Made by a program: the position numbers and the translations under genes. Positions 394 to 17,618 of a DNA stretch of 64,000 bases are shown in pieces. Source of the DNA: a phage; the NCBI GenBank assembly GCA_026683435.1, contig GCA_026683435.1_4866.1, one strand, 5' to 3'. The notes beneath the pieces were generated by a model. It was not told where the DNA came from. It saw only the letters and a list, made by a program, of their open reading frames with translations, and searched no databases. Each line of letters begins with the position of its first letter. Within the stretch, counting starts at the first letter, position 1.

Positions 394-428
394 AAAAAGA
401 AAGCCTCTTCCCCGTGGGGAAGAGGGCA
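394..428 (-). terminator. rho-independent terminator after gene 472..2649
   Basis: Stem cctcttcccc / ggggaagagg with GTG loop; T-run on minus strand (plus-strand aaaaagaaag precedes the stem). Confidence 0.65.
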
Positions 429-471
429 TGGATTATCTTTAGGCTTTAAACCCGTCAAGTTCCTCGTTAAA

Positions 472-2649
472 TTACGATAACGGTATCGTTGGCCGCACCC
501 ACGGTTTAGGGGCAGATTTGGTATACGGATTACATTCCATCATTTTACCGAGATACGCATCGTAATACACGAAGCGATCGACGTAGAACTTCTCCACCGG
601 TGCACTACTGGTAGCCGATTTCACCCGGTTGCGTTCCACAGCGAGGCTAATCGCCCCGGTAGGTGCGGGTTTTAGCGTGAACATCACCGCGCGGTTGTAA
701 CGCCAAGTGTCGTGCACAATATCAAACTCCGATACACAGTGTGCCATGATACCAAACAATGTGGTGGCTGGTAAGTTGGCTACAGCATCGCCGTATGGTG
801 TTCCCACCAAACCGCCGGGTATGTTTTGCTTTTGGAACAGCGTACCTGAAATAATCGTACCTAAGAACTCCACAACTACAGGCTTGGTTGGGTCGGTGAC
901 TTTATCTATCCCATCCGCACTGGCCAATCGGTTGGCATCTAAATCTGCGAGGTAGTCGAGGAACTCTTGGTACTCGTTGGTGACATTCGGTTTCACCGTT
1001 CCGACGGATACCCAGTTGACGATACTTTTATTCCCACCGACGGCTTCGCCTGCCATCCCAGGGCGAGTCCATGACATCCCGTCTTCACGACCGTAGACAT
1101 AGATCGGCGAGCCGGTAGCCGGGGTGTTCCATTGCTCGAACGCTGTATATCGTCCCGGCTGGCCCCAATCCCCACCCGGACCGCCATAGTAGCGACTCTG
1201 GTAGCCGGTAAATTGTGCGACGACTAACTGAGTAGCACCGCCTTTGTCACGGGACCCAGCTAAGCCGTTACGGTTATTGGTGCCGCTGGGCACCACCGCG
1301 CCTGTCCCGAGTGGCGCACCACCAGCTCCACCGATCTTGGTGGTGCTAAACGCATAGTAGTCGCCCCCACCCCCACCTCCGGCGATGGTGCCGTAGTTTT
1401 CGATGGTGACTTTGCCACGGAAGGCATCGGTAATGTGGATTGCGTCAGCTCCGTCTGCTGATGTGTTCGCAGGCAGAGAATAGACCATACCCGAACCACC
1501 ACGACCAAGAATGGTTCCCCGGTTAACGAAGTTCCAAACCACCTCGCCAATTTGCGGCAATTCGTCGATAACGAACGTCGGTTTCAGGTTGCTGTCGCGA
1601 TAAACGAAAGCCCCCGCATCTACGGTCACGTTAACAAACAAACGCCCGCACGCCGCATGGTTGGTCAACGTCGTGGCCCAGTAGCTGTCCGAAACTTGCG
1701 ACGTAGTTGTGTAGTTCAGGTTAAGGGTTTGCTCGTTATCTTGATAGCGTGCCACATTCAACGTGGCACTGCCCATGACTTTGTACGAACCCTCCACGGG
1801 TGCCAATTGCACTTGTCTTGGCCACTCGCCTGTCAAGTTCTCTACAGGAGCAATTTCGTTTACATCAAAAACACTCCGAATGCCGAGTGTCTCGATGGCC
1901 AGAGCATCGTGCAGGCTACCGGTGAAATCATCCGGGACGTATGTGGTTTTGCCTGCATATGTCTCGAGTTTGTTACGTGAAAAGAACACATACTTCGTTC
2001 CAAACATCCCGCTCCCCGGTCTAGCGGTCAAAGCTACGACGCTGTTATACGCAGAGGTTTGGCCTATATCCTCCGGGGACATAGGGGAGCTGACATCGAC
2101 TTTATCAAGATCCACGATCCGTTTGGTTGCATTAGAGTAGAAGTTAATCCACTGCTGTTTATTCGCAGCCTTTAGCGTGAGAATGATGTTGGTAACAGTG
2201 TAGACGGTGTTGATATCCACGTCACCGTTTATCACATCTAGCGTTTGGCTGCCGTACCAGATAAGACTTGTCTGTTTCGTCTGGAACGTGATGCGCGCAG
2301 CATTGTTTGTCCAAGTGATAGGCAGGTCTTCAAAGTCGTCAGTTAAAAAGGTAATCCCTAGTAGAGTGTCTAAATGCGGCAACAGTTCGTGGATGGACGC
2401 ACAAGTGGGAATGGCATCCAACTTAACCTTGGCGAAATAATCAGCAATATTTTGCTTCGTGACTTGGGCCGTAATTTGACCGTAATTTGAATACCCCGGA
2501 CCCCCTGTCAGTGTGACGTCTAGGGTTTTTTCGTCACGATGCGCCACGGACACCAGGCGTACGTTAGCGGGGTCTACTGCTTTGGCGACCGCGTTTTTAC
2601 GGTTGAGCGACCGAATCACGGTCGCCACTAAATCAGGAGTGTAGGACAT
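472..2649 (-). CDS. N-module paralog family, 725 aa, glycine-rich; putative tail-fibre/virion protein
   Basis: ORF track 725 aa. N-terminal blocks (TLTGGPGYSNYGQIT...NIADYF; LLGITFLTDDF) shared with array paralogs; Gly tracts; C-terminal ...SAPKPWVRP resembles the end of the 2664..3983 product. Confidence 0.6.
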   Translation of the reverse strand: MSYTPDLVATVIRSLNRKNAVAKAVDPANVRLVSVAHRDEKTLDVTLTGGPGYSNYGQITAQVTKQNIADYFAKVKLDAIPTCASIHELLPHLDTLLGITFLTDDFEDLPITWTNNAARITFQTKQTSLIWYGSQTLDVINGDVDINTVYTVTNIILTLKAANKQQWINFYSNATKRIVDLDKVDVSSPMSPEDIGQTSAYNSVVALTARPGSGMFGTKYVFFSRNKLETYAGKTTYVPDDFTGSLHDALAIETLGIRSVFDVNEIAPVENLTGEWPRQVQLAPVEGSYKVMGSATLNVARYQDNEQTLNLNYTTTSQVSDSYWATTLTNHAACGRLFVNVTVDAGAFVYRDSNLKPTFVIDELPQIGEVVWNFVNRGTILGRGGSGMVYSLPANTSADGADAIHITDAFRGKVTIENYGTIAGGGGGGDYYAFSTTKIGGAGGAPLGTGAVVPSGTNNRNGLAGSRDKGGATQLVVAQFTGYQSRYYGGPGGDWGQPGRYTAFEQWNTPATGSPIYVYGREDGMSWTRPGMAGEAVGGNKSIVNWVSVGTVKPNVTNEYQEFLDYLADLDANRLASADGIDKVTDPTKPVVVEFLGTIISGTLFQKQNIPGGLVGTPYGDAVANLPATTLFGIMAHCVSEFDIVHDTWRYNRAVMFTLKPAPTGAISLAVERNRVKSATSSAPVEKFYVDRFVYYDAYLGKMMECNPYTKSAPKPWVRPTIPLS

Positions 2650-2663
2650 GGTGACACCTTAGT

Positions 2664-3983
2664 CTATAGCGGTGGATACCAAGGGACCGGGGCGGTTTTG
2701 CTATATGGACTGTAGACCATATAGCCGCCTTTGCTTGGGTCGTAATAGATGAAATAGTTACAGTAATTCGAGTAGAGGCTCGTCATTTGTTTGGATTGGT
2801 ATCCGTTACGGTATAGTCCCTGGTAAGTAGTAGCTGATGTCGTGGTGGTGTAAGCAGTGTGGTACAGTACCCGACGCCGGTTAGCAATACTTTCTTGGAA
2901 CATCTCTTCGGTCGGAAACGCGTGTTGCATCAGCCGTCGAATACTCCCGGTACAGTATCGAGTGCCATACGGGGAACCCGTTAAATCATCCGCCGTTTCA
3001 GGCGATTCTGCCCGAGTCAACACGTACTCGTTTTGATACAACGTGACGCTCATCGAATTTGGGCTGGTTTCCCGGAAACTCATGTAACGCGCATAACGTT
3101 CGACGTCCTCTTCCTGCGCCAAATAGGCCACGTTATTTTTCGGACCAAAGTGCAAGAAGAACGGACGACGGAGATTACCCATATCCTCAGGTGGCGTCAA
3201 CTTCACGCAGTAATTGTACTCCCCACGCATATCAGGGTCTAAGCCTGGGTTGTTATTGCGTGTAGCGACATACCCATAGAGGTCATACGGGTTATCAGTA
3301 GCAGCATTACCGATAGTGAACGGGATGCCCGACCATGCCGACAGCGCCGCGATGAACTGGGTCATGTACGAGTTACTGTTTAGTCGCAGCGGGGTACCCA
3401 TTGGAATATTGATTATCTGTTGGGTGTACATGCTCCAGTCGAGTCGATAGACCGTGCTGTAAACATCCATGGGTTCCCAAGCCCCGGTTTCGGTGGTGTG
3501 GTACAAGTCGGCAAAGCTGGGCTCTTCACGAATAAAGCTAATAGGAATGTGACCCGTGAATGCGGGGTTATCCGATTTAATCGCCACCGTCCGATCGCCC
3601 GTTGCCACAGTGATCATTGCAAACTGGCTGTCGGGATACGTTAAATCGTCAGCAGTAAGCACCAACCCACAAGCTGCGGAAATCCGGTCGATGATGTCGC
3701 GGTAGGACGTCGCCCGATAAGGTACTTTAACCGGTACGCTGACGCCTTTAAAATACTGCGAAAGGTTTAAGCGGTCGTAGTAGATGTCCATCTTACCGCT
3801 GTAACCACCACCCTGTAATCCGTTTACCACTATACGGCTGTTGCGGCCATCGCGCAAGGCATTGGTTAAAGGACCTTGTAATAACGCCACGTTTGTTGCG
3901 TTGAGTGGTTTCTTGAGCTGCGGGTTATCACGATTAATCTGATCCCAAACCAGCTGCATGACAGGTTTGTTATAGTTGATCAT
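2664..3983 (-). CDS. N-module paralog family (A-type), 439 aa; putative tail-fibre/receptor-binding-like protein
   Basis: N-terminus MINYNKPVMQLVWDQINRDNP...GRNSRIVVNGLQGGGYSGKMDIYYDRLNLSQYF...CGLVLTADDL matches the family module; ATG at 3983. Confidence 0.6.
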   Translation of the reverse strand: MINYNKPVMQLVWDQINRDNPQLKKPLNATNVALLQGPLTNALRDGRNSRIVVNGLQGGGYSGKMDIYYDRLNLSQYFKGVSVPVKVPYRATSYRDIIDRISAACGLVLTADDLTYPDSQFAMITVATGDRTVAIKSDNPAFTGHIPISFIREEPSFADLYHTTETGAWEPMDVYSTVYRLDWSMYTQQIINIPMGTPLRLNSNSYMTQFIAALSAWSGIPFTIGNAATDNPYDLYGYVATRNNNPGLDPDMRGEYNYCVKLTPPEDMGNLRRPFFLHFGPKNNVAYLAQEEDVERYARYMSFRETSPNSMSVTLYQNEYVLTRAESPETADDLTGSPYGTRYCTGSIRRLMQHAFPTEEMFQESIANRRRVLYHTAYTTTTSATTYQGLYRNGYQSKQMTSLYSNYCNYFIYYDPSKGGYMVYSPYSKTAPVPWYPPL

Positions 3984-3993
3984 TGCAACGTCC

Positions 3994-4030
3994 TAAAAAA
4001 AGAAAATAGGCCCTTCGGGGCCTATTTTTA
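3994..4030. terminator. hairpin terminator (TTCG loop) upstream of gene 2664..3983, A/T runs on both sides
   Basis: aataggccc-ttcg-gggcctatt flanked by aaaaaaagaaa and ttttt. Confidence 0.6.
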
Positions 4031-4034
4031 GCTG

Positions 4035-4637
4035 TTATGGTGAAGTACGCTATCCCTTTAACTCCAGCTGATTCGACCTGCGTGTTGGGGATTATCCCGC
4101 TGAATGAGCCGACACAACAGCTCAAGTGCAGTGGATGAGTAAAACCCCATATTAGCTCCTGTTAGCTAAGAACCAATTCGATAACGTGGACTACCGACGC
4201 GCTACTGTTCGAAGAGATGTACGATGGTGAGTCTGGATAAGTGGCGCGATAATACCACGTGTTGGCGTTGCCAGCGATTTGATAGGCGCGTCTACCGACT
4301 GTACACTGCTATCAGATAACCAAACACCGTATAAATCACGTAGAGCTGGGAGAAGATCCCGCACGGTCTTGGCCGTTTGTGGTACGTAGACGCGCGGAGC
4401 TATTTAAAATAGATCTGATAATGTTAAACGGTCGTAATAAACCGTGCACTCCCCAGAGAAACCTTTACCGGGTTTACCTACCAACGTAATTACCGTGTTA
4501 CGACCATTCTTAGTGGTCTCGGCAGGAATACCCCTCACCCCAATCGAATCAGCGCTGATTCTTCCTGCGAGTTCAGGGTTATCCCTTACAACCTGTTGGC
4601 AGAGCAGTTCCAGTTCGGGTGCGCTATACAATCCCAT
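4035..4637 (-). pseudogene. decayed array copy: intact 77-codon N-module fragment (4404..4637) followed by non-coding remnant
   Basis: Fragment MGLYSAPELELLCQQVVRDNP...VYYDRLTLSDLF is about 74% identical by eye (57/77) to the N-terminus of the 6550..7968 product; no ORF in 3984..4403; 4130..4400 keeps residual nucleotide similarity to the 3' end of gene 4649..5548. Confidence 0.55.
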
Positions 4638-4648
4638 GAAGTCTCCTG

Positions 4649-5548
4649 TTAAGGCAGAACGAGTTCAAGTACCGCAATAGAACGTATTGTATCGGTTTCG
4701 TATCTACCGTTCGACGGCGACTCTGGGTAAGGTGGACGGCTGTACCACTGATTGTAAATGTCAGACATAGTCGCAAAGAGTGCAGATTGCGGGGCAGTAG
4801 TCGAATCGGTTGGACCGACCGGAAGGTCGTCAAAGCGCGGCAACTGCCCACTGTAGTTGTACAGGCGCGCGAAAGTGTTAAACCACTCACCGTCGAGATA
4901 CAGCTCGGTCTTACCGCTTCTAACGTTAGTCGTCCAGAATCTGTAGTCGAACAAATACGGCAAACGCACCACGTATTCGTAACCGTTCTTCGCCACCGTG
5001 CGGCGTTGGTTACGTGCAGTGGCCCAGCTCGGTACAAATCCATTGCCATCCTGGCCGTACATCAGCCCCTGGTTATAAATGAACTGCGGGCTAGCGTATA
5101 TTATCGCGTTATCGGACATAAACAGAATACGGTTTTTGTAAATGAACTTATGCCAGGCACCAACGGCGGAACTGAACATATTCACCACGAGGCTGTTCAG
5201 TTCCGTGTTAGTGAATAACTCTGTTGGCGTTACTGTTCCAAAGTATCCAGCGTGCCAGTCGCCGTATAACAGCTTCTGGGGGCCAGGCCCGGTGTCTAAA
5301 AAGAACCCTTGGGCGGTAGGGGTGTTGAAGACACGCTCACCGTCTTTAACCGCAGCTATCCAATAACGGTAAGTGGTGTTGTTTTCCACAGCGTTGTCTT
5401 CGTACGATGTAGCGTCACCCGGAAGGGTTGCCAGAGGCGTTCCCGGTGCATTAACATCAATGGTGGCGTTGCCCGGCGTCTTGCGATAGATTTCGATGCT
5501 ATCGAGCGCCTGTGGCTTCCGTTGTGCAAAGTTTAATGTAATAGGCAT
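4649..5548 (-). CDS. array paralog B'-type (beta-sandwich-like N-terminus + shared core domain)
   Basis: Track ORF 4649..5584 starts at TTG; first ATG at 5548 (MPITLNF...) 2 nt after the upstream stop. Motifs IEIYRK...TYRYWIAAVKD, GPGPQKLL...GYFGTV, C-terminal ELVLP shared with 7982..8905. Confidence 0.6.
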   Translation of the reverse strand: MPITLNFAQRKPQALDSIEIYRKTPGNATIDVNAPGTPLATLPGDATSYEDNAVENNTTYRYWIAAVKDGERVFNTPTAQGFFLDTGPGPQKLLYGDWHAGYFGTVTPTELFTNTELNSLVVNMFSSAVGAWHKFIYKNRILFMSDNAIIYASPQFIYNQGLMYGQDGNGFVPSWATARNQRRTVAKNGYEYVVRLPYLFDYRFWTTNVRSGKTELYLDGEWFNTFARLYNYSGQLPRFDDLPVGPTDSTTAPQSALFATMSDIYNQWYSRPPYPESPSNGRYETDTIRSIAVLELVLP

Positions 5549-5550
5549 GA

Positions 5551-6537
5551 TTAATCCTCGATAAGCTCGATTACTGGAATCCAAACACCGCCCGCGGTCG
5601 CACCAGCGACATGTTGTATACGCTGGAGGTTATCCACGGTATCAGTGGAACCCGCCGCCGTTCCGCGCGTCAGCCCCAACTTACGGTCTGGGTCAAACTC
5701 CTGACAATGCGCCCCGCGGCCACTCACCGCCGATCCACTTCCGAATATGCTGGTGTTCGACCACTTTATCAGGGACATCACTTTTTTCTTTTCTGGGAAC
5801 CAGCTACTTATCCCATAGATGAGTCGGTTGTATTCGCTATCGGCAGTATACGGTGACGCGTCATGGAGTTTACCGTCCCACTGTGCATCGAGTGTCATGA
5901 CCGGGCTTTCACTGTCGAGTGTTAAACCGCGCAGCAGGCGCATCCGATAGCGGTCACCCAACCACGTAAACTCCCCAGCCTGGTCAACGTCAGGTAAATC
6001 ACCATGACCGCCTTCCGGACCAGGTCCCGCCACACCGTACAGCAAACCCGCGTTATAAATCGCATCACGGCTATACAGCGTGTTGCCGTTCACACGAAGA
6101 CCACTAAACAGATACAGAATTTTACCGTCTAGCTGGAACTTCATCAAGCCCGGCTTAACAGTTGGGTCGTATCCAGAAAGGGCCACAAACCCTGGCGGAT
6201 AATCAGCCGCGCTAGGCAATTCACCGTACGCCACATACCCGTAATACGCAAAGCGGTCATCACCGTACTGTGGAGCCACGATGCCGATACCGCGACGGTT
6301 CTGAATTAGAATTGATTTCTGCGGACTGAACAGTGTCCGACTTCCCACTGTCACGGTGGTCATGTAGTAATACGTTGTCCCCAGTATCGCTGTTCGGTCA
6401 GTATACTCAGTTTCCCCGTTAGTGAACGTTGCCAGGGGTTCAGGTAATGCCGTACGCACCAGAGGTTTGGTGTCGCGGTACAGCTTCACGGTCGAAGCCC
6501 CAGGGTTATTGTTCGTCCAACGAATTGTAAAAGCCAT
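5551..6537 (-). CDS. array paralog B-type
   Basis: 328 aa; MAFTIRWTNNNPG...VKLYRD...TYYYMTTVT; core motifs AIYNAGLLYGVAGPGPEGGHG, RMRLLRG; paralog of 8915..9913. Confidence 0.6.
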   Translation of the reverse strand: MAFTIRWTNNNPGASTVKLYRDTKPLVRTALPEPLATFTNGETEYTDRTAILGTTYYYMTTVTVGSRTLFSPQKSILIQNRRGIGIVAPQYGDDRFAYYGYVAYGELPSAADYPPGFVALSGYDPTVKPGLMKFQLDGKILYLFSGLRVNGNTLYSRDAIYNAGLLYGVAGPGPEGGHGDLPDVDQAGEFTWLGDRYRMRLLRGLTLDSESPVMTLDAQWDGKLHDASPYTADSEYNRLIYGISSWFPEKKKVMSLIKWSNTSIFGSGSAVSGRGAHCQEFDPDRKLGLTRGTAAGSTDTVDNLQRIQHVAGATAGGVWIPVIELIED

Positions 6538-6549
6538 TGTCGTTACCTC

Positions 6550-7968
6550 TTATTGGAATCCATCCAACTCACCGTTAGTATCGCCCAGAGTAATTTTTGA
6601 AGGTTGGGCGATTTGGTCAGTCGTGAGAATAATCGGTCTAATCTTAACGCTAGCCATGCCTGTTACCGCGACGGAATATGCACGTTCATCATTGTCCGTC
6701 GTGGCAAGCAGAGGACGTGGATTCGCTGCAGCGGAGGTTTCCGTAATAGGCACCACACGAAGCGATTCGTTTTGGTCGATGTCTGTCAGAGTAACCACGG
6801 ACGGTGCCCATGTCAGTTCTGCACCTTCGTCAATCAACGGCACAGGTTCATTGGCAACATCAAACATCTCCAGGATTGGCCAAAAGCCAGAAGAGGTGTG
6901 GATGTATGTGTATGAACGATAGCTCCCACTGATAGACTGGTAATACGCTTGGTCGGCACCGAACTGGTGTCGTAACCACACGTAATCCAGGAAGTTAGCA
7001 TCAGTCGTGCTAAGAGTTCCCCATTCCCCATATACGTTCACCGACCCCAATTTGCTGGTCAGTGACAGGATAGAGGTGATTGACGGCGGTTTACTCCAAT
7101 CAGGCGCGGCGGCGTTCTCGGTGTAATACGGGATAGACATTCTGAAATAATGCGTTCCTTCATCATCCCGTTTTACCATGTATTTCAACTGTTCAACATC
7201 GACAGGTGTGTAAGTCGACTTCGGGCGAGGTCCTGCGTCTCCGGAATCAAATATTGCACCCTTGTTGTACAGGTCTGCCCAGGTAACGTTGCAAATCGCA
7301 CGGGTCGGAACAAACACTACCGCCCCATTCAGAAAGAATTTGAGCCACTTGATAGCGTAGCGGTTAGGCCAGTTGGTGCCGTTATAGAGGGCATACACCA
7401 TTTCATCAGATGTGAATAACTCTTCCGCGCTTACCAACCCAAAGAATCCGTATAACTCATTACCGGCCATTAATCCTTTTGGCCCAGGACCCGATTTCGG
7501 ATACATCGCAATCGGTTCGTAAACATAGGTCATCTTGCATGACCCGGTATAACACAAGGAGTTAGCGTGCGCCGTCAGAGTTACAGTTTCCGGCGTAGCG
7601 TATTTCATTAATGCAACGTTTGGACTGGTGATGTCACTCGCGGTTAAGTTCAACCCGTTCAATTCATTGAACGCCGGTAACGCTTCCGCATGGGTTTGTG
7701 CGCTACGTGGAATACTCACCATATTCGGGCCAGACTTGAACAGACTGGCCAGATTCAACCGGTCGTAATATACCGTTATTTCCCCAGCAAATCCTTTACC
7801 GGGTTTTCCTACCAACGTAATCTGTGTGTTTCGTCCGTTAACGTTTTTCGCAACAGGAACACCCCTGACCCCAATGGAGTCAGCGGTGATTTTTCCTGCT
7901 AAACCGGGATTGTCACGCACAATTTGTTGGCAGAGCAGTTCCATTGAAGGTTCTGTATACAACCCCAT
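6550..7968 (-). CDS. array paralog A-type (N-module + core domain), 472 aa
   Basis: N-module MGLYTEPSMELLCQQIVRDNP...GRNTQITLVGKPGKGFAGEITVYYDRLNLASLF; core GPGPKGLMAGNELYGFFG; C-terminal NGELDGFQ shared with 9925..11337. Confidence 0.6.
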   Translation of the reverse strand: MGLYTEPSMELLCQQIVRDNPGLAGKITADSIGVRGVPVAKNVNGRNTQITLVGKPGKGFAGEITVYYDRLNLASLFKSGPNMVSIPRSAQTHAEALPAFNELNGLNLTASDITSPNVALMKYATPETVTLTAHANSLCYTGSCKMTYVYEPIAMYPKSGPGPKGLMAGNELYGFFGLVSAEELFTSDEMVYALYNGTNWPNRYAIKWLKFFLNGAVVFVPTRAICNVTWADLYNKGAIFDSGDAGPRPKSTYTPVDVEQLKYMVKRDDEGTHYFRMSIPYYTENAAAPDWSKPPSITSILSLTSKLGSVNVYGEWGTLSTTDANFLDYVWLRHQFGADQAYYQSISGSYRSYTYIHTSSGFWPILEMFDVANEPVPLIDEGAELTWAPSVVTLTDIDQNESLRVVPITETSAAANPRPLLATTDNDERAYSVAVTGMASVKIRPIILTTDQIAQPSKITLGDTNGELDGFQ

Positions 7969-7981
7969 GGTATTTACTCCA

Positions 7982-8905: not shown

Positions 8906-8914
8906 GACTGCCCC

Positions 8915-9913: not shown

Positions 9914-9924
9914 GGATGATACCT

Positions 9925-11337
9925 CTACTTAAAGCCGTCCAGTTCACCGTTAAGAGACGTTAACGTTGTCTTGTCGGGGGGAGTATACATTTCAGCGGTA
10001 GCCGCAATAGGTTGGAAGTCGACTGTCTTCGGCAGCATTAATGCAGGCGGATGCAGTGCGAAACTGTTTTCTGAAGTAACAACTACCGGTTCGAAATCGG
10101 TAGTATCTGGATTACCGAGCACCAACGGCTTGAGACTAAACGTGTTTTCTGCGGACACGCTGCACGGTTGGAGGCTGTAATCTACCGCGCCGTGGATATC
10201 TTCTAAGCCCAAGGTAACCGTGGACTTATCCACCAACTCTAGCACCGGGAACCAGTAGTAGTTGCCTGCGCTCGATGATTTTTCTAAGTTTGTCCAACTG
10301 GCTCCAGACAACGTCGCCATGCGATGATAGGCGACGTTGGTCTTCAGTGTATCTTTCAATAAACAGAACAGCGTCCAGTAACTGTTAATCGGTTTGTCCC
10401 ACGTTCCATTATACAGAAAGTTGAACATCTCAAACTCACTACCTGCTAACTCAGCGGCAGTTGGGGTGCCGCTGACGTATGGGTCTTTCCCGGCACTAGG
10501 TAGACGAACACGGAAGTAAAACCTTTTGTTGTCTGCGCCTGTAAAGCTAATGATGCGTCCCTGGTTAACGGGCGTCGCCGCAGGGTATTTACCATTATCA
10601 TCTGTTCCGTAAACGAGTCCGTTTGTATATAATGTATTCCAGGAGATGGAGCTAGCGACAGGACTGATCGGGAGGTAAATAACCCTACCCTGGTAAAAGA
10701 ACTTGTACCAACCTTCGGCACCAGAATGTACCGGTGGTAACGCACCGGCCGATATAGTGGCATTAAGAAGTTGAGAGTGTGTAAACAACTCTGCAATTGT
10801 GGTTGTTCCGAAATAACCCGCAATAGTGTTACCTTGCAGCAACGTTTTAGGGCCAGGTCCAGAATCGGGGTAAATTGCACCGCTCGGGACGGTATAACGT
10901 ATCGTTAAGCTGCCTGTAAACGCAGGGCAATTACCTGAGATATTTAATTTCAGCGTCTGCGGCGAAGCGCTCGGTTTAGGTAGACTTGCGTCAGGTAACT
11001 GCAAATCAGAAGCAACTAATGTAAGCCCCAATGCGTCGTTTATTGCAGGTAGCGCGTCTCGTACCGTTAAGACTGTATCTTTGATAGCCACAGTCGGCAC
11101 AAAATTAAATAAAGTGGCCAGGTTAATCCGGTCGTAGTACACGGTAACATTACCTTGTACACCTGTCCCTGGATACCCGGTGAAAACAGCTTTGGTGTTA
11201 CGTTGGTTTAACGTAACTGAAGTTGGGCCGCTGGTTAAAGCAGCGATAGCCGGCGTCAGCTTAACAACTAAATCAGGGTTATCCCGATTGACTTGGTCGT
11301 ATACAAGCAGTGCCGACTCCTTCGAGTAAAATAGCAT
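9925..11337 (-). CDS. array paralog A-type, 470 aa
   Basis: ATG at 11337; N-module ...NQRNTKAVFTGYPGTGVQGNVTVYYDRINLATLF; core DSGPGPKTLLQGNTIAGYFG, LYTNGLVYGTDDNG; C-terminal NGELDGFK. Confidence 0.6.
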   Translation of the reverse strand: MLFYSKESALLVYDQVNRDNPDLVVKLTPAIAALTSGPTSVTLNQRNTKAVFTGYPGTGVQGNVTVYYDRINLATLFNFVPTVAIKDTVLTVRDALPAINDALGLTLVASDLQLPDASLPKPSASPQTLKLNISGNCPAFTGSLTIRYTVPSGAIYPDSGPGPKTLLQGNTIAGYFGTTTIAELFTHSQLLNATISAGALPPVHSGAEGWYKFFYQGRVIYLPISPVASSISWNTLYTNGLVYGTDDNGKYPAATPVNQGRIISFTGADNKRFYFRVRLPSAGKDPYVSGTPTAAELAGSEFEMFNFLYNGTWDKPINSYWTLFCLLKDTLKTNVAYHRMATLSGASWTNLEKSSSAGNYYWFPVLELVDKSTVTLGLEDIHGAVDYSLQPCSVSAENTFSLKPLVLGNPDTTDFEPVVVTSENSFALHPPALMLPKTVDFQPIAATAEMYTPPDKTTLTSLNGELDGFK

Positions 11338-11352
11338 AGGGACTCCGCATCG

Positions 11353-11382
11353 CCAAAAGAGGGGGGGCTCCGAAGAGCCCCT
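11353..11382 (-). terminator. hairpin terminator after gene 11387..12214
   Basis: ggggctc-cgaa-gagcccc, G7 run in 5' arm; T-rich on minus strand. Confidence 0.55.
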
Positions 11383-11386
11383 ACAC

Positions 11387-12214
11387 TTAGCTGTTATAGT
11401 GGTAGTACGCCACGCCTTTCACGCCTTCCTCATCGATACCCGTTTGGACAACCACGCGGTCGTACGATTTGTTAGCGAACTGAGCGGTGGATGTCGGCAC
11501 ATCCTGAACGGTGTTACTGTTCAGTGGCCCCGCGTAGTTCGGAATACCCAGGTCATCCAACACCTTACGCAAACCAGCCCACTGCGGTAGGCCAGAAGCA
11601 TCTACTGTCAGTAGGTTTTTATACGCGGTAAAGTCAATACCGTACGTCAACAAATCAATACACTTCTTACCGAGAGACGGTGAAATAGGCTCTTGAATCG
11701 CATTCAAGACATCCGATTTCACCGAAGTGTCTAGTACCGGTAAACCACGGTTATAACGCAACGTCGCAGAACCGATATAAGCCGGAGATGTCGATAGCGC
11801 TACGATGTTCTGTGTATTGGTGTAATTTGGGGTATTGGGACCCGCCAGTGGGAGGTTATAGATATCGATTGCAGAGAAGTTTACTCCGTAAGTATCCAAG
11901 AGCACCGAAAAGGCTGAGTGGAGGTTGGGAGCGTCAAACGTGACGAACTGCGCCTGGACAGAAGGACCCCACGGCAATAACCGCGCTAAGTTCACACGGT
12001 CGTAGTAAACGGTGATTGCGTCTCGAAATCCAGAACCCTGAATACCGCGCAAGCGTGCCGACGTATTGCGGTTGTTGGAAGCTGCATTAACGGGAACCTG
12101 TGTCACTTTCTCCACGTAGCAGTTTGCCGGCGACGCTTTAATAGGTAGGTTTGGGTTATCCCGGTTAATGAGGTCAAAGACCAACTCGTTTGACGGCTTA
12201 GCATAGTTGATCAT
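11387..12214 (-). CDS. N-module paralog, 275 aa, C-terminal YYHYNS (C-type end motif)
   Basis: Track start 12217 is TTG; ATG at 12214, 4 nt after upstream stop. MINYAKPSNELVFDLINRDNP...NNRNTSARLRGIQGSGFRDAITVYYDRVNLARLL. Confidence 0.6.
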   Translation of the reverse strand: MINYAKPSNELVFDLINRDNPNLPIKASPANCYVEKVTQVPVNAASNNRNTSARLRGIQGSGFRDAITVYYDRVNLARLLPWGPSVQAQFVTFDAPNLHSAFSVLLDTYGVNFSAIDIYNLPLAGPNTPNYTNTQNIVALSTSPAYIGSATLRYNRGLPVLDTSVKSDVLNAIQEPISPSLGKKCIDLLTYGIDFTAYKNLLTVDASGLPQWAGLRKVLDDLGIPNYAGPLNSNTVQDVPTSTAQFANKSYDRVVVQTGIDEEGVKGVAYYHYNS

Positions 12215-12217
12215 CAA

Positions 12218-13105
12218 TTATACCTCGCTTGGATCGTCCAGATCGTTGAACTGGAGATACAACGTTCCGACGATGGTGGTACAGGTAACAGGCAGTTTCA
12301 ACACCAGCGCATACTTGTACTTCGCGTTTGTCGGCATTGCAACAGGGTCATTCAGACCAACGCTGATAACCTCCGCGCCCGCCAAACCGTAGGAAGCGGA
12401 AGTGGTCGCTACCCATGCAGTACCCGTGATATCTTTCAGCAGGTTAACCATATCCGTCAACGGCTGTCCAGACAGAATACCCGGCTTGTATGCCAGCAGA
12501 GCATCTCGGTACTTAGTGAAGTTGTACGGGTAGGAATAGACCTCTGCAATGACCGCAGTAACATTTTCGGAACCCATCTGACCGTTCGGGTATTTCAGAC
12601 CGGTCAGGACGTTAGTAGTGACCGCAGAGACTAACGACTCATCGCCTTTCACGACTTTAAATGTCGCCTGTCCAACCCAACCGATAGACTCTGGATGTGC
12701 AACAACACGCACAGTACCTTCGGTCTTATCACCGTTCCATTCGATATCTGCGTCCTGCAGGTCAGCTTCTTCCAGAACAAAACCGTAACGTTGGTTCAGT
12801 CCAGGAATGGCCGCATACAAGGTTTCGTTGGATGGGCCGATCGCCAACGTGTCACCAATCAACACTAACAAGTCTTCGACTTTCATGCGGTTGTAGAAGA
12901 CATTTTTCTTACCCGACCAGGTAGAGCCCGTTACCCCATCTGCCGTAATTTTAATTTGCGTGTTACGGTTAGTCAGCGTTTCCTTTTCCGTACCACGGAT
13001 GTCCTTTGGCGTGGACCAGATGATGTCAGTCATCTTAACAGCAAGCGAGTTCTGTGCGTTCACTGCTGCCAACAGGACGTCTTTAGAAGGTTGATAAATA
13101 GCCAT
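12218..13105 (-). CDS. N-module paralog C-type, 295 aa
   Basis: MAIYQPSKD...TNRNTQIKITADGVTGSTWSGKKNVFYNRMKVEDLL...RYGFVLEEADL; C-terminal LYLQFNDLDDPSEV. Confidence 0.6.
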   Translation of the reverse strand: MAIYQPSKDVLLAAVNAQNSLAVKMTDIIWSTPKDIRGTEKETLTNRNTQIKITADGVTGSTWSGKKNVFYNRMKVEDLLVLIGDTLAIGPSNETLYAAIPGLNQRYGFVLEEADLQDADIEWNGDKTEGTVRVVAHPESIGWVGQATFKVVKGDESLVSAVTTNVLTGLKYPNGQMGSENVTAVIAEVYSYPYNFTKYRDALLAYKPGILSGQPLTDMVNLLKDITGTAWVATTSASYGLAGAEVISVGLNDPVAMPTNAKYKYALVLKLPVTCTTIVGTLYLQFNDLDDPSEV

Positions 13106-13115
13106 TCGCTAATTC

Positions 13116-13955
13116 CTAGTTGTTGTAGTGCAACATACACTCGCCGATTACTTTCGGGTCGTTCTGAATGCCGGTAATCAGCAATACGTTATCGTACGCT
13201 TTATTGGCGGTCGCCAACTCACTCGTTTTGTAGCGGGTAATTGTGCAGTTCGTCGGATCAAACGACGGTACCCCACGTGCGACCAATGTGGCCATCAGAT
13301 TGGACGTGTAACCCAAATCAAAGTTACTTCCTACGTCCATTCGCCCGTTCTTAAACGAGGCCATAACCTGCACTTCATCGGTAAAGTCTTCCCCGTACGT
13401 CAAGAAGCCCATGTATTTCTTACCAGTGCTTGCTGCTGCAGGGTGGTTCAAAGCCAACAAGATGTCGTTTACCACGAGGTCTTCGAGGCTATTCTTACCC
13501 CGGATAGACATAAAGGTGATGCTGCCAGTGTATTGGATACAGCTAGCGTTAATACGCATCGTGTTGTTTACGTTCAGATAAACGTATTGTTCTGGGATAT
13601 CATCTGCAACCAGGTTTAATCCATAACGACCGTTCAGGTTCTGCGCAAACGCAGTACGTTTCGACTCCACGTTCAACCAACCGTAGGCATTCGGTGCAGT
13701 TACCTGAGGTGTCATGTTCTTAAATAAGTCGTTCAGCGACAAGCGCTTATAACGGAACGTTTGAGGACCGATATAACCACGACCTTGACGACCACGAATG
13801 ATAATCTCGGTGTTGGCACCGCTTGCTGTCGGTGTGATTGCTTTCGGCGTACCGATGATAGCATTGTCTAAACCCATCGGTAGAACAGCATCCGGGTTTT
13901 CGGCATTAATCGCATCGTACAGATATTGTCGCTGAGACAGACTATATAAAGCCAT
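13116..13955 (-). CDS. N-module paralog C-type, 279 aa
   Basis: Track start 13973 is TTG; ATG at 13955 with GAGGAGG 4 nt upstream (MALYSLSQRQ...). Module ...GRQGRGYIGPQTFRYKRLSLNDLF...RYGLNLVADDI; C-terminal MLHYNN. Confidence 0.65.
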   Translation of the reverse strand: MALYSLSQRQYLYDAINAENPDAVLPMGLDNAIIGTPKAITPTASGANTEIIIRGRQGRGYIGPQTFRYKRLSLNDLFKNMTPQVTAPNAYGWLNVESKRTAFAQNLNGRYGLNLVADDIPEQYVYLNVNNTMRINASCIQYTGSITFMSIRGKNSLEDLVVNDILLALNHPAAASTGKKYMGFLTYGEDFTDEVQVMASFKNGRMDVGSNFDLGYTSNLMATLVARGVPSFDPTNCTITRYKTSELATANKAYDNVLLITGIQNDPKVIGECMLHYNN

Positions 13956-13970
13956 AATAGCCTCCTCGGC

Positions 13971-14012
13971 CAAAAAAGAAAGGAGTAGCCAGGAGGAGGA
14001 TTTCCTCCTCCC
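13971..14012 (-). terminator. hairpin terminator after gene 14025..14936
   Basis: ggaggagg-attt-cctcctcc; minus-strand T-run (plus caaaaaagaaagg). Confidence 0.6.
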
Positions 14013-14024
14013 AGCGAGGCCTAA

Positions 14025-14936
14025 TTAGGCATTAAAGTGCAGGTACATGATACCCTGGAAGTTGGTGCACAGAGTGTCATCCAGCTGCAGCAGCAGAACC
14101 TGGTTGTAAGCAGTGTTTGCACCTTCAACCGGTTTCTTAGGTTCGTCGCCTGAAGCAGTGCCATCGTCAGTAGTAGAACCAACGTACAACACGTTAGCGC
14201 CTTTCAGGTTATAATCCGCAGGCTTATCAGATGCAACCCACAGTTCCGGCACAACTTTATTCAGCTCAACCGGGAATGCAGAGTCGCCAGCGATAACACC
14301 TTTCGCCTGTACTTTCAGGAATGCTGCGATTGCTGTGCAGTCTACACCGTAAGAGTAGATGTAACCCTGACCCTTCGCAGCGCTTGGACCATCTGGGTAA
14401 ACCAGGCCGTCGAGCTTGGTTTGTGTTACCACCAGACTCAGACGTTCACCAACCTGAGGCTTAGCACCGATTTTAACCGGGATGCTGCCCAGATAAGCGT
14501 AGCAGTCTTCTTTGAAAGTAATGACGTGGTCAACCGGTGCTGGGTCCGGATCGTTCGGGTTAGTCAGCGGCGGGTTGGTATTTTCCGGAATAGCCGCCGG
14601 AACGATATCGTCTTCGGTCAGCTTCAATCCGTATTGGGTGTTCAGGGTCGTCAGCAGGTCGGTGGTGGTTTTCGGCAGTTTAACGTCGAGGTATGCGGTT
14701 ACATTACGGAACAGCGCACTGCCTTCCAGGCGATTATAAGTCACGTCCTGAGTACCGATGTACCCGGAGTTCTTTTTCGCAGTCAGGGTCATGCTGGTAT
14801 TGCGATCGGCACCTTCATCGCTAATAGGGGTCGGTGTGCCGAGCGTTATTTTAGAAAGTTCCAGTTCTGCGTCTGGGTTTTTCTCATTAATAAAATCCAG
14901 AACCAGCTTATCGGACGTTTTGTTTAAAGGTTTCAT
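14025..14936 (-). CDS. N-module paralog C-type, 303 aa
   Basis: MKPLNKTSDKLVLDFINEKNP...ADRNTSMTLTAKKNSGYIGTQDVTYNRLEGSALF...QYGLKLTEDDIV; C-terminal MYLHFNA. Confidence 0.6.
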   Translation of the reverse strand: MKPLNKTSDKLVLDFINEKNPDAELELSKITLGTPTPISDEGADRNTSMTLTAKKNSGYIGTQDVTYNRLEGSALFRNVTAYLDVKLPKTTTDLLTTLNTQYGLKLTEDDIVPAAIPENTNPPLTNPNDPDPAPVDHVITFKEDCYAYLGSIPVKIGAKPQVGERLSLVVTQTKLDGLVYPDGPSAAKGQGYIYSYGVDCTAIAAFLKVQAKGVIAGDSAFPVELNKVVPELWVASDKPADYNLKGANVLYVGSTTDDGTASGDEPKKPVEGANTAYNQVLLLQLDDTLCTNFQGIMYLHFNA

Positions 14937-14957
14937 TCTTACTTCCTTTACTCAGGA

Positions 14958-15803
14958 TTAATCAGGGTCGTTGTAATGCAAATACAAACGCCCGCCAAAA
15001 TTCAGACAGTACAACGACAGCTCCACAATCAGCACGTTGTCGACTGCTGGGTTGGTTGGTAATTCCGCTTTGTTACGCCCGTTATAGACGACGACGGCTT
15101 CACGAAGGTTAAAGTCGATAGGGTTGCGGTACGTTGTCCAGTTATCACCGGTGACCGTTTTGAGAATCTGTGCCAGACGTTCTGTGGTTATCGCAGCACC
15201 TAGTCGTTGAAATTCCTCCGCGAAATTATCAAAGCGCCAGGGATACGAATAAACTGCACCTTGACCGACCTTGATGTTAAAATACGGATACTCGTAAGGC
15301 ATCACTGTTAACGGTTCGAAGTTTGCAGGAAGCAACGCATCGCCTGGTAACAGCTGTACCTGTTGTTGCCCTATCCAACCTAAAGAAGTGGGCGTGGCAA
15401 TCAGATCCACACGCCATGTCTTCCTGTCGATTTCGGTATTCACCACATCTGCAGGTTTAAGGCTGAGACCGTAATACTGGTTAATTAACCCGACCACGTC
15501 ATGCATCTGGTAAACAGCATCGAGACGTGCAGGAACACGTAGAGGTTGAATCCCGTCCGGATCGGTAAACATGTCTGCGAAGTCAACACGATCGTAGTAC
15601 ACGGTAGTGGCACCGATAGCATTAGCCGTGGCCAATGCCTGAATGCGCACCATCGCGTTGTGACCGTTAGCTTTTGCCAGGTCTTCGTCAGACGTCGGAA
15701 TCGCAGGGACACCAAAAACAACATCTTCGACTTTTAAATCGAGATTGTTTTCGACGTTAACTTCCGCGATAATAATCTTTTCAGCTGTGGCTAAAAGTGG
15801 CAT
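14958..15803 (-). CDS. N-module paralog C-type, 281 aa
   Basis: ...TTVYYDRVDFADMF...YYGLSLKPADVV; C-terminal LYLHYNDPD. Confidence 0.6.
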   Translation of the reverse strand: MPLLATAEKIIIAEVNVENNLDLKVEDVVFGVPAIPTSDEDLAKANGHNAMVRIQALATANAIGATTVYYDRVDFADMFTDPDGIQPLRVPARLDAVYQMHDVVGLINQYYGLSLKPADVVNTEIDRKTWRVDLIATPTSLGWIGQQQVQLLPGDALLPANFEPLTVMPYEYPYFNIKVGQGAVYSYPWRFDNFAEEFQRLGAAITTERLAQILKTVTGDNWTTYRNPIDFNLREAVVVYNGRNKAELPTNPAVDNVLIVELSLYCLNFGGRLYLHYNDPD

Positions 15804-15813
15804 GTCAAAATCC

Positions 15814-16656
15814 TTATATCGGGAGATAATGAAGGATGAGATTACCGGCGTAGTTGCTGTCCGCAGCTAGCTTGATAATCGCCACACGCTGATAATCGGG
15901 GTTGTAACTATCGTTCGGTGTGACTGAAGTTATCCCCATAAATCGTGCACCTTGGAGTGCAATTTGTTCAGGTTGCGCATTCGCCCCCGTCACATATGCA
16001 AACTTTAATGGCACCACTTCATTCAACAACTCAACATCCGCTGCAGTGATTGCACGGTTGTAAACCCAATCGGTGGTGAACTGTTTTTGCAGTTCAGTCC
16101 AATCGTAACCATACGCCACATACTCAGCCTGCGGTTTACTAGCAACCACGAACGGCGCGATAATTGCGCTGAGGTCAACATCCGTCACCACATCCGCCAA
16201 GTTCGGGAAGAACTTCGCAAAGCGTAAACGGAAACCACCTTGCCAGGCCAAGCAACCGGGCTTAATAGTCACATCGATTAACCAGCTTTCTCCCAAATCT
16301 TTTACTGACTGGTCAACGATATCGTCGGCAACTAAAGACAAGCCGTATTTCGCATTCAGAAACGGCAACAACTCAGAGAGTTTATTTACCGGGTCGGCAA
16401 CGACTACCGGTATTACGTTCCTGAACAGAATTTCCATTTCGATACGGTCGTATTCGAGCGTAACGTTGCCTTTGTAGCCCTTGCCGTTCAACCCGTATAA
16501 GAGCACACGCGTATTCCGGTCAGCGCCAGGCGTTTGGACAGACTCAGGGAAGCCAGTTGCAACCTGCTCCCATGTGAGTGGATTGGCCGTTAATCCGTTC
16601 TGTCGGTTAATAGCATCTAACAACATCTCTTTCGAGGGCTTATCGTAAATAGACAC
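15814..16656 (-). CDS. N-module paralog C-type, 280 aa
   Basis: MSIYDKPSKEMLLDAINRQNG...ADRNTRVLLYGLNGKGYKGNVTLEYDRIEMEILF...KYGLSLVADDIV; C-terminal LILHYLPI. Confidence 0.6.
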   Translation of the reverse strand: MSIYDKPSKEMLLDAINRQNGLTANPLTWEQVATGFPESVQTPGADRNTRVLLYGLNGKGYKGNVTLEYDRIEMEILFRNVIPVVVADPVNKLSELLPFLNAKYGLSLVADDIVDQSVKDLGESWLIDVTIKPGCLAWQGGFRLRFAKFFPNLADVVTDVDLSAIIAPFVVASKPQAEYVAYGYDWTELQKQFTTDWVYNRAITAADVELLNEVVPLKFAYVTGANAQPEQIALQGARFMGITSVTPNDSYNPDYQRVAIIKLAADSNYAGNLILHYLPI

Positions 16657-16666
16657 CTATACCCTC

Positions 16667-17464
16667 CTAGTTGTTAAAGTGTAGGTTGAGGCTGCCCTGG
16701 AAGTTCGTACATTTATCGGTCAGTTGCACTGACACGACTTTCGCGAACGCCGTATTTGCTCCCGGCAAGTCTGCAGGTACGCCGTCGAATACGACAGTGG
16801 CACCACGCAGGTTATACGGGGATGGGGTATCTTCAGCTACCCAAATCTCAGGAACACATTTGTTGAGTTCGATTGCCAACGCCGTGTCATCTACCTCGAT
16901 ACCGACCGCTAAGAGGCTCAGGAAACGAGAGATGTGGCTACAATCGATGTCACGCGAATAGATATACGCCTGACCCAACTGGATGTCCTGGTGATCCGGG
17001 TACAGAAGACCGCTCAACTCTGTATTGGTTACTACTTCTGCCAGAGGTGTAGCAGGTTTCAGCTCGATGACCGCTTGACTTCGCCACTCGTGGGAAGTTT
17101 CAACAGCAACGACTGTGTGCGTCTGTCCATCAATGGGGTTATCTTCGATATCCTCAGGTAAGATAGACAGATTAAAACGCTCGTTAATCGCCGCGAGTAA
17201 GTCGTGCGTGGTTTGCACGTCCTCGTCTCCAAAGGCAACATCGCCTGTAAGGTAGTCCTCTAATGGGCGACGATGGTAGTCCACAATCACTTGCGTACCT
17301 TCATCACCGCGCATCTTCGAGGTAAGGACTACCTCCGAATCACGACCGTCTACTGACACAACCTCCGGCAGTCCGATATCAACATCGTCAAAGGTAAGCG
17401 GTGGGCTTATCTTATTCTCTTCGTTGATGAGTTTTAGCAGATTCTGTTTTGAAGTAAAAGACAT
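16667..17464 (-). CDS. N-module paralog C-type (first gene of array), 265 aa
   Basis: MSFTSKQNLLKLINEENK...; C-terminal SLNLHFNN; divergent N-module. Confidence 0.55.
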   Translation of the reverse strand: MSFTSKQNLLKLINEENKISPPLTFDDVDIGLPEVVSVDGRDSEVVLTSKMRGDEGTQVIVDYHRRPLEDYLTGDVAFGDEDVQTTHDLLAAINERFNLSILPEDIEDNPIDGQTHTVVAVETSHEWRSQAVIELKPATPLAEVVTNTELSGLLYPDHQDIQLGQAYIYSRDIDCSHISRFLSLLAVGIEVDDTALAIELNKCVPEIWVAEDTPSPYNLRGATVVFDGVPADLPGANTAFAKVVSVQLTDKCTNFQGSLNLHFNN

Positions 17465-17565
17465 CGCGTTAACTCGAGTTAAGGGATTATTGAGGTCGTA
17501 AGATTTTTAGACCCCCTGCCAGCATATTAAAAGCGTAGTGCGTACCAGAATCCGAACAAGAGCAA

Positions 17566-17618
17566 ACAAAAAAAGAAAAGGAAACAAAAAAGAAGGGGAG
17601 CCGAAGCTCCCTTTTCTT
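17566..17618. terminator. hairpin terminator after gene 17643..17861; T-run also on plus side
   Basis: gggagc-cgaa-gctccc preceded by long A-rich tract and followed by ttttcttc. Confidence 0.6.

Follow-up and report, generated by a model that had tools for sequence, protein, structure and literature searches.

A tandem array of DUF7941 paralogs in an SPN3US-like giant Salmonella phage as probable self-chaining adhesive filaments

The window analyzed here is a 64,000-nt stretch of phage DNA (GenBank assembly GCA_026683435.1, contig GCA_026683435.1_4866.1), and its positions 472..17464 hold a tandem array of paralogous genes, most of which begin with the same N-terminal module. This region matches 61 phage records, the best of which are Proteus phage 7, Salmonella phage MET_P1_082_240, and other members of Seoulvirus SPN3US, with 96-98% DNA identity. 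With 97-98% DNA identity to SPN3US and Proteus phage 7, the window belongs to Seoulvirus, as an SPN3US-like giant Salmonella phage. Seoulvirus is a genus of nucleus-forming jumbo phages related to phiKZ. The array corresponds to gp155 back to gp138 in SPN3US coordinates (locus tags SPN3US_0155-0138); the window open reading frames (ORFs) are one-to-one orthologues of SPN3US gp138-gp155, with 90-99.6% amino acid (aa) identity over their full length, and the DNA is collinear, with the same order and strand. The 15 intact ORFs follow one another head to tail, all on the minus strand, with spacings of 2-70 nt, except for a 665-nt stretch (3984..4648) that contains a decayed copy and an older relic. 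An initial annotation, made from the sequence alone, had listed 15 intact minus-strand genes and one decayed gene in this region; both were confirmed, the decayed sequence being located at 3984..4648.

The shared N-terminal module was identified by profile matching as the N-terminal domain (NTD) of the Pfam family DUF7941 (PF25613; model length, 276 positions; gathering score, 27 bits). Eleven array ORFs match PF25613 with E values of 3e-22 to 7.6e-87 and scores of 79.8-291.7 bits, all above the gathering score, and two genes elsewhere in the window (25196..25747 and 48447..48974) bring the total to 13. The four array genes designated B or B′ (see below), and a gene at 43531..44148, have no PF25613 match. 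All-against-all BLASTP connected the array N-termini, with E values down to 1e-23. A custom hidden Markov model (HMM), built from the first 165 residues of the 11 genes and run on the six-frame translation of the whole window, recovered four sequences outside its training set (the decayed copy, the older relic, 25196..25747, and 48447..48974), and the best ORF outside the family reached only E 3.8. This test, proposed in the initial annotation, revealed a significant similarity, far beyond chance, and extra members. The motifs RNT, GxxGxG[YF]xG, YYDRxxLxxLF, and YGLxLxxDI, reported in that annotation, are visible in the alignment, and the sharing of the module by 11 genes is supported by Pfam, BLASTP, and HMM; the length of the module is ~150 aa rather than the ~110 aa first given.

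Structure prediction of the module, suggested in the same annotation, yielded the fold of the phiKZ gp127 NTD, a domain that was solved in the outer baseplate. The NTD model of the gp141 orthologue (14025..14936) matched 9xqd_0 with a Foldseek E value of 8e-6 and a TM score of 0.66. By phmmer, the same protein aligned with gp127 at E 0.0085 over residues 67-302 of 303, from the second conserved block of the NTD to the C-terminal LHYN motif. The array shares with phiKZ gp126/gp127 both this alignment and a neighborhood, in that homologues of phiKZ gp128 and gp139 are conserved around the gp83 orthologue (see below). The two systems differ in number, as phiKZ has only 2-3 members, with gp127 at a fixed site, and the sequence identity to the array is only ~15-18%. 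One gp127 is present per star lobe, giving six per virion, at the end of the gp139 band on the outer baseplate (PMC13250141; PDB 9XQD).

An exhaustive profile search with 13 NTDs against 1.84 billion representative sequences (E<=1e-3) found 3523 protein clusters. Besides NTD-only and full-length proteins, these comprise chains with two or three NTDs, others with 8-11 in tandem, and fusions that reach 2908 aa. Pfam scans of seven long metagenomic homologues identified Gp38, arabinofuranosidase with BNR, BNR/sialidase-like propellers, Ig with SPRY, DUF285 repeats, and cadherin-like regions. All of the partner domains identified are of extracellular binding or glycan-processing type. Two metagenomic proteins, P0193 (1166 aa) and P0136 (1496 aa), carry 8-11 tandem DUF7941 NTDs per chain; one has a cadherin-like region, and one ends in DUF285 repeats.

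Seven genes at 11387..17464, encoding proteins of 265-303 aa, cover model positions 1-276 and consist of NTD, linker, and C-terminal domain (CTD). These full-length DUF7941 proteins, assigned by Pfam and orthology and all encoded on the minus strand, are the orthologues of gp138 (16667..17464; 99.6% aa identity; PF25613 E 9.8e-68, model positions 5-276), gp139 (15814..16656), gp140 (14958..15803), gp141 (14025..14936; Pfam E 1.7e-84), gp142 (13116..13955), gp143 (12218..13105), and gp144 (11387..12214). The GTG start of 15814..16656 agrees with the mass-spectrometry-revised start of SPN3US gp139. The AlphaFold model of the gp141 orthologue (pLDDT 89) shows a dip in confidence at aa 160-190, between two confident domains. 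None of the seven carries an effector domain; they look like chain subunits, and the product of 14025..14936 is a candidate for the main one.

The linkers of the full-length proteins contain a motif, hydrophobic-x-x-V-T-x-T-K-L-D-G-[LF], which is the best-conserved segment in the alignment of gp141 orthologues. A VTxTKLDG[LF]-type motif was also found at the extreme C-terminus of most gp83 orthologues examined, and a shorter form ends the disordered tails of both A+ proteins of the array. This motif may represent a docking peptide, and VVTQTKLDGLVYPD and ...LNGELDGFK are the candidate peptides for binding to the NTD.

The next six genes, also on the minus strand, form two A+/B′/B triplets. In the first, the A+ gene (9925..11337, gp145 orthologue) encodes a DUF7941 NTD (aa 1-150), a C-type-lectin-like core (aa ~155-370), and a disordered tail ending in LNGELDGFK, and is followed by B′ (8915..9913, gp146 orthologue) and B (7982..8905, gp147 orthologue), each with an FN3-like N-terminal domain and a lectin-like core. 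The second triplet has the same composition, with A+ at 6550..7968 (gp148 orthologue; tail ending in NGELDGFQ), B′ at 5551..6537 (gp149 orthologue), and B at 4649..5548 (gp150 orthologue). In both A+ proteins the core spans ~215 aa, and the ~100-aa tail, disordered in the AlphaFold models, has the conserved end NGELDGF[KQ]. The gene at 6550..7968 has a 26-aa deletion relative to SPN3US gp148 (~aa 400-425), within the disordered, repeat-like C-terminal tail, whose length is strain-variable. Strain differences in 7982..8905 cluster at aa 225-300. The gene at 4649..5548 is the most divergent of the array (90% identity to SPN3US), and its start is likely the ATG at 5548 rather than the TTG at 5584.

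The middle domains of the two A+ proteins are common to the B/B′ proteins (BLASTP E 1e-8 to 1e-20). The initial annotation had described the C-terminal parts as unrelated; this view is contradicted by the shared core, by the seven full-length DUF7941 genes, and by a ~105-aa C-terminal stretch common to 472..2649 and 2664..3983. The core appears C-type-lectin-like at the level of the predicted fold; Pfam and PDB sequence searches found no sequence-level match to any lectin or FGE family. In this it differs from the C-type-lectin-like adhesins and receptor-binding proteins that it may resemble in fold (Legionella Lcl, the Bdellovibrio Bd2740 fibre tip, intimin/invasin, Bordetella phage Mtd, and Treponema TvpA). 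The N-terminal ~80 residues of B/B′ matched Fn3-like domains in a profile search against PDB (3MPC, E 1e-4; pectate lyase 4U49, E 2e-3), in agreement with the beta-sandwich that had been proposed for the start of these four genes; Pfam fn3 reached only E 0.1 on single B/B′ N-termini. The label 'glycosyl hydrolase', given to B/B′ in the Proteus phage 7 annotation, has no support in Pfam or PDB sequence searches, and the fold prediction points instead to a lectin-like domain. The DUF7941 CTD and this core share a 'YPD' motif, but hhalign gave a probability of only 0.06% for their homology, which was rejected. DNA repeats of at least 40 nt in 1..18500 are limited to one 46-nt pair (76% identity) and a 213-nt match between the decayed module and 7757..7969 (75% identity). 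Recent gene conversion among the paralogs was rejected on these grounds. The same region contains no template/variable repeat pair; a diversity-generating retroelement behind the variation of the lectin domain was therefore dismissed, and the array differs in this respect from the targets of such elements.

The array ends with two minus-strand genes in which the NTD is joined to other domains. The gp154 orthologue (2664..3983; Pfam E 1.5e-26, phrog_6409) consists of a DUF7941 NTD, a middle part, and the ~105-aa C-terminal domain, which is shared with the gp155 orthologue (BLASTP E 1e-6). The latter (472..2649; PF25613 E 3e-22) contains the NTD, a further copy of the module with a weaker match (aa 176-318; HMM E 2e-5), a Gp38-like domain, and the shared C-terminal domain. 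The Gp38-like domain is glycine-rich (aa 373-553), and scored 65.9 bits against PF05268 (Gp38; cutoff 25; E 5.9e-18). It also matched phrog_2056 ('tail fiber protein; host specificity'; E 3.4e-19), and reached a phmmer E value of 1e-3 against S16 gp38 (6F45_D), a PDB match that is weak and compositionally biased. T-even Gp38 is a separate ~260-aa protein at the tip of the gp37 long tail fibre. The gp155 orthologue is similar to the Gp38 adhesins of T2/T6/S16-type phages in having a PF05268 domain above the gathering score, but this domain is internal to a 725-aa protein headed by DUF7941 NTDs and does not stand alone. With the domain embedded in this way, and with an SPN3US orthologue that is not tail-associated, the protein does not have the properties of a stand-alone gp37-tip adhesin.

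The decayed gene (4162..4637, minus strand) is a hybrid: its first 127 codons come from a gp151-type A+ gene, with a stop after codon 77 in the surviving NTD, and its end is the final 112 nt of a gp153-type B gene. Alignment with Proteus phage 7 and SPN3US shows that the 2865 bp between these two points (codon ~127 of the former gene, 112 nt before the end of the latter) are missing from the window, and a 17-bp overlap is found at the deletion junction (4257..4273). As judged from this alignment, the gene is a deletion remnant. The custom HMM matched it at 4407..4664 (E 7e-23), with a continuation at 4194..4403 (E 2e-4). The older relic (4058..4150, minus strand) is a 30-codon fragment of a module start (MGFYSSTALELLCRLIQRDNP...), whose DNA is collinear with Proteus phage 7 and SPN3US; its HMM match spans 4061..4165 (E 5e-4).

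The window strain thus lacks most of the third triplet (gp151-gp153) of SPN3US and keeps a pseudogene remnant of it. In SPN3US and Proteus phage 7, the array ends with three triplets followed by gp154-gp155, and in the window with two triplets, the remnant, and gp154-gp155. Phage EC001 has two triplets followed by gp154-gp155, the loss having occurred via a different junction. Phage JN03 has two triplets and the same remnant junction as the window; at the gp154-gp155 position, a further, different A+/B′/B triplet is present (MT799840, 130855..134771, compared with 472..4648 of the window). These differences, seen across strains isolated on Salmonella, E. coli, and Proteus, indicate that the array is mosaic at its distal end and that the A+/B′/B triplet behaves as a unit of gain, loss, and exchange. 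Fifteen related phages of 224-251 kb share the same plan: a block of seven to nine full-length genes comes first, and the triplets and gp154/155-type genes after it differ in number and order. More distant contigs of phiKZ size (loci L021-L024) have only a full-length and short pair. Among five strains, variable alignment columns amount to 6.6-13% in B/B′ (in B concentrated in the last ~100 residues), 2-5% in A+, gp154, and gp155, and 0.7-3.3% in the full-length genes.

Three genes outside the array had initially been assigned the module, and two of them were borne out by Pfam and HMM. The gp83 orthologue (48447..48974, minus strand) is a short member, with an NTD and the linker motif LVTKRALDGF (Pfam E 3.2e-13, 50.2 bits; HMM E 3e-9; hhalign 95.5%). 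It is flanked upstream by a homologue of the phiKZ baseplate wedge protein gp128 (48982..51177, minus strand; 731 aa; E 1e-84), and downstream by a homologue of phiKZ gp139, the outer-baseplate band dimer (47567..48454, minus strand; 295 aa; E 7e-31; Pfam DUF7208), which is the neighborhood expected for a baseplate-docked member. In SPN3US, gp82 and gp84 are lost with the tail, and gp83, encoded between them, stays with the heads (PMC10052503). The gp122 orthologue (25196..25747, minus strand; gene delimited as 25196..25729) carries the NTD alone (Pfam E 6.4e-18, 65.6 bits; HMM E 1e-19; phrog_2935). Two of the outlying genes had been described as lying immediately upstream of a large structural-type gene; this is clean only for 25196..25747, as the 731-aa wedge gene lies upstream of 48447..48974, and the gene downstream encodes only 295 aa.

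The third outlying gene, at 43531..44148 (minus strand; gp91 orthologue), was rejected as a member: the custom HMM gave E 0.024 and hhalign 2%, and the gene has no Pfam match and its own PHROG. Its C-terminus LLEEVTITKLNGFRY, with a VTxTKLNGF motif, is very similar both to the end of gp83 (LAQLVTKRALDGFRP) and to the linker of gp141. By this resemblance, it may donate the same docking peptide. SPN3US gp91 is a tail protein (PMC10052503).

The array and its shared module were already known from SPN3US proteomics, from Pfam, and from a preprint on phage Goslar. SPN3US paralog family B, published in 2016-17, was described at that time as perhaps the largest set of paralogs in any phage (Thomas et al. 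2016, PMC5105663; Ali et al. 2017, PMC5694885); the initial annotation rightly called the copy number unusual, a point that was already in print. The family was named with 20 members and the candidate gp122 (Ali et al. 2017, PMC5694885). It comprises gp83, gp138-gp154, gp160, and gp237, including a run of 17 genes, and its 20-21 members are all virion proteins (PMC5105663, PMC5694885, PMC10052503). These are the same genes as those of the array; gp155, which by sequence belongs to the DUF7941 family, is not labelled family B in the 2023 tables. The published SPN3US work contains no domain analysis and places the family in the head. The present analysis adds a domain map of the array (lectin-like core, FN3-like domain, and Gp38-type adhesin), assigns gp155 to the family, proposes a docking motif, identifies the triplet as the unit in which copy number changes, and sets out the conflict over location explicitly.

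The SPN3US orthologues of all array genes are virion proteins by mass spectrometry, with 132-2239 peptide-spectrum matches (PSM) each; gp141 is the most abundant array protein (2239 PSM), and gp143 the second (PMC10052503). A rough spectral-count estimate puts the family at the order of a thousand or more copies per particle, at a cost of ~20 genes, or roughly 7% of a 240-kb genome. Every family B protein is listed as 'unlikely cleaved by gp245', and the N-terminus, where determined, is intact or only Met-trimmed (Table S6 of PMC10052503). Proteins gp122 and gp91 were found only in tailed particles, and gp237, like gp122, behaves as tail-associated (PMC10052503).

The DUF7941 family was named in a 2026 preprint on phage Goslar. 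In this phage, the family amounts to >2500 copies per virion, purified gp22 forms filaments by negative-stain electron microscopy, AlphaFold 3 predicted head-to-tail dimers via the linker, and fusions of DUF7941 to carbohydrate-binding, hydrolase, and LRR domains were described; a baseplate-anchored 'fibre cloud' was proposed (bioRxiv 10.64898/2026.04.21.720040). The Goslar proteins (gp22, gp23, gp31, gp33, gp34, gp86, gp91-93, and gp161) belong to the same Pfam family as the array and share with it the architectures NTD-linker-CTD, NTD-linker only, and NTD with carbohydrate-binding, hydrolase, or repeat domains, as well as a high copy number in the virion and a proposed head-to-tail mode of chaining. 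The 10 members in Goslar are scattered, in contrast to ~15-18 contiguous ones in the SPN3US lineage, and the array differs in its effectors (C-type-lectin-like core, FN3, and Gp38-like) and in its NTD-less partner genes (B/B′). The anchor also differs, since the Goslar authors propose the baseplate and the SPN3US data say head. The text of the Goslar preprint does not mention SPN3US; the two bodies of work have thus not been reconciled. A further paralog family, phiKZ gp131-gp135 and SPN3US family C (gp168-170), is likewise placed at the baseplate or its fibres in the literature. It is a different family, with genes outside the window, and is tail-associated, with ratios of tailless heads to wild type (head/WT) of 0.004-0.013.

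Taken together, these data suggest that the array probably encodes self-chaining external adhesive filaments that aid host capture. This reading builds on the family membership and predicted domain folds of the array proteins, the presence of their orthologues in virions without proteolytic processing, the filaments formed by Goslar gp22, and the position of the gp127 NTD in the phiKZ baseplate; from these we infer the polarity of the chains, the roles at their tips, the triplet complex, and exposure outside the particle. The ~150-aa NTD would serve as a docking module, not a packaging signal, and would either accept the linker of another member or sit on a virion anchor, with the NTD as acceptor and the linker motif as donor. 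The seven full-length proteins would form head-to-tail chains, with the gp141 orthologue as bulk subunit. Proteins in which a binding domain takes the place of the CTD would join the chains via their NTD, display that domain, and end or branch the chain; the displayed domains would be the lectin-like core of the two A+ proteins, the Gp38-like adhesin of the gp155 orthologue, and another domain of the gp154 orthologue. The B/B′ proteins, which have no NTD, might ride on the neighboring A+ partner, because duplication, loss, and exchange affect the A+/B′/B triplet as a whole. The resulting product would be a flexible coat of adhesive filaments, which raises the chance of catching a host surface or flagellum. 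The SPN3US receptor is the flagella, which suits long, flexible capture fibres. The conserved linker motif lends indirect support to the chaining, the existence of tandem covalent NTDs fits such a beads-on-a-string assembly, and P0193 and P0136, by their domain composition, look like a covalently concatenated version of the proposed filament.

The domain map, and the concentration of strain variation in the binding parts, point to host recognition. The layout of a conserved anchor and a variable distal domain, recognized in the initial annotation, can now be specified, as the anchor has the fold of the phiKZ gp127 NTD and its partners are lectin-like, FN3-like, and Gp38-like. If the filament interpretation is true, these genes would be determinants of host range in therapeutic jumbo phages of Salmonella, E. 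coli, and Erwinia, and the receptor-binding apparatus would be made of self-chaining subunits instead of trimeric fibres.

Several observations weigh against this interpretation, most of which concern location. On tailless heads from a tail-tube amber mutant of SPN3US, the head/WT ratios of gp138-gp155 are 0.89-1.67, compared with 1.20 for gp83 and 1.39 for the major capsid protein (Scheuch et al. 2023, PMC10052503). In the same study, the sheath, tube, tape measure, baseplate, and fibre proteins have ratios of 0.004-0.07, the baseplate and fibre proteins dropping 20-200 fold (PMC10052503). All array proteins were present on tailless heads from two different SPN3US mutants. By these published ratios, the array orthologues do not show the loss with the tail that marks baseplate fibres and receptor-binding proteins; their retention conflicts with anchoring at the baseplate and would fit an internal location equally well. 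Ratios as tight as those of capsid proteins favor either an internal location or an external anchor on the capsid or neck. Furthermore, keyword searches of the SPN3US papers found no mention of fibres on SPN3US heads, and the Goslar preprint is unreviewed, its filament 'cloud' being a model, not a structure observed on virions.

One possibility, which we regard as tentative, is that the expanded array forms a 'hairy head', a coat of fibres with its anchor on the capsid or neck, not on the baseplate. Chains of the gp138-144 type would carry A+/B′/B hetero-complexes and the Gp38-type adhesin at their ends, and would snag flagella or surface glycans before the tail engages. Such an arrangement would reconcile the head-location proteomics with the extracellular, adhesive domain content. 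If it is true, the 2026 model of a baseplate fibre cloud does not generalize.

The location and role of the family are contested: according to one laboratory it resides in the head and may be ejected cargo, and another has put forward filaments on the baseplate that serve in host capture. The two interpretations offered in the initial annotation, receptor-binding proteins and packaged cargo with a shared incorporation signal, mirror this disagreement. The cargo interpretation was also arrived at by the SPN3US laboratory, which labelled gp141 and gp160 'Head ejection?' (PMC5694885). The proteins would be packed with the DNA, the NTD being an uncleaved incorporation signal that binds scaffold, core, or inner shell, and the variable parts would act in the host after injection. 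The capsid-like ratios of the array proteins, gp83, and gp160 on tailless heads of both mutants agree with this proposal, as do the large amount of disordered internal protein and the vertex 'antlers' of SPN3US heads. We nevertheless consider it unlikely, as the partner domains are of extracellular adhesion or glycan-binding type (C-type-lectin-like, FN3, and Gp38 here; BNR, arabinofuranosidase, and cadherin-like elsewhere), and none of the proteins is processed by the prohead protease, which does cut abundant ejection proteins such as gp53 and gp54. A Pfam scan detected no PF12699 or other internal-head-protein domain, the homologous phiKZ gp127 NTD lies on the exterior of the baseplate, and Goslar gp22 forms long filaments. 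A literature search for injection of phiKZ gp126/127/143 found nothing.

The other interpretation, that of classic receptor-binding proteins, would have each NTD protein act as an independent fibre or spike, inserted through its N-terminal anchor directly into a socket of the baseplate; together they would make up a multivalent, branched adsorption apparatus like those of branched-fibre phages. The defined baseplate site of the phiKZ gp127 NTD, the position of the gp83 orthologue between the gp128 and gp139 homologues, the tail association of SPN3US gp122 and gp237, and the adhesin-like distal domains are all in its favor. The arrangement is not, however, one trimeric fibre per gene on the baseplate, since seven members have no effector domain, and the array proteins stay with tailless heads instead of being lost with the SPN3US tail. 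In addition, the six gp127 sites per phiKZ virion stand against tens to hundreds of copies for each of ~20 proteins (rough spectral-count arithmetic), and Pfam and PHROG scans detected no trimerization, beta-helix, or intramolecular-chaperone domains. This explanation is thus quite improbable for the array.

Least probable is a purely structural role as capsid accessory or decoration proteins (for example, a hexamer-centre protein with 260 copies, or vertex complexes), in which the lectin-like and FN3 domains would act as protein-protein cement: head association in two mutants, the rough copy numbers of tens to a few hundred, and the Hoc-like density at each hexamer centre and vertex 'antler' complexes, both without protein assignment, would fit it, but the number of triplets varies and gp154/gp155 is replaced among viable strains, which would hardly be expected of fixed parts of a lattice, differences between strains accumulate in the distal part of the lectin-like domain, a Gp38-type adhesin domain is present, and the Goslar capsid model of 28 proteins is without DUF7941 proteins (bioRxiv 10.64898/2026.04.21.720040).

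Beyond the array, the stop of the module-only gene at 25196..25747 overlaps the start of a strain-specific gene (23037..25196, minus strand) encoding 719 aa. This gene replaces SPN3US gp123 and gp124 ('tail-associated protein', 3.5 kb), to which it has no DNA similarity. The 719-aa product has no Pfam, PHROG, or PDB sequence match, and in a comparison with 50,697 phage records only its first 39 residues matched, to an Erwinia phage 'tail fiber protein'. The gene looks like a strain-specific swap of a receptor-binding protein behind a conserved N-terminal anchor. Four other stretches (18533..19322, 29020..31075, 38008..38799, and 40944..41392) have no BLASTN match of >250 bp to SPN3US, and the surrounding DNA is 94-97% identical.

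A promoter scan found no motifs enriched over shuffled sequence; SPN3US-type phages use their own RNA polymerases. Four strong GC-rich hairpins followed by T runs, identified by pattern match only, were found on the minus strand at 17596..17611, 11364..11381, 4003..4028, and 404..425. The terminator-like hairpin at 11364..11381 separates the seven full-length genes from the triplets, and that at 4003..4028 lies upstream of the gp154-type gene. The four sites flank the array and divide it into three blocks, consisting of the seven full-length genes, the triplets, and gp154-gp155.

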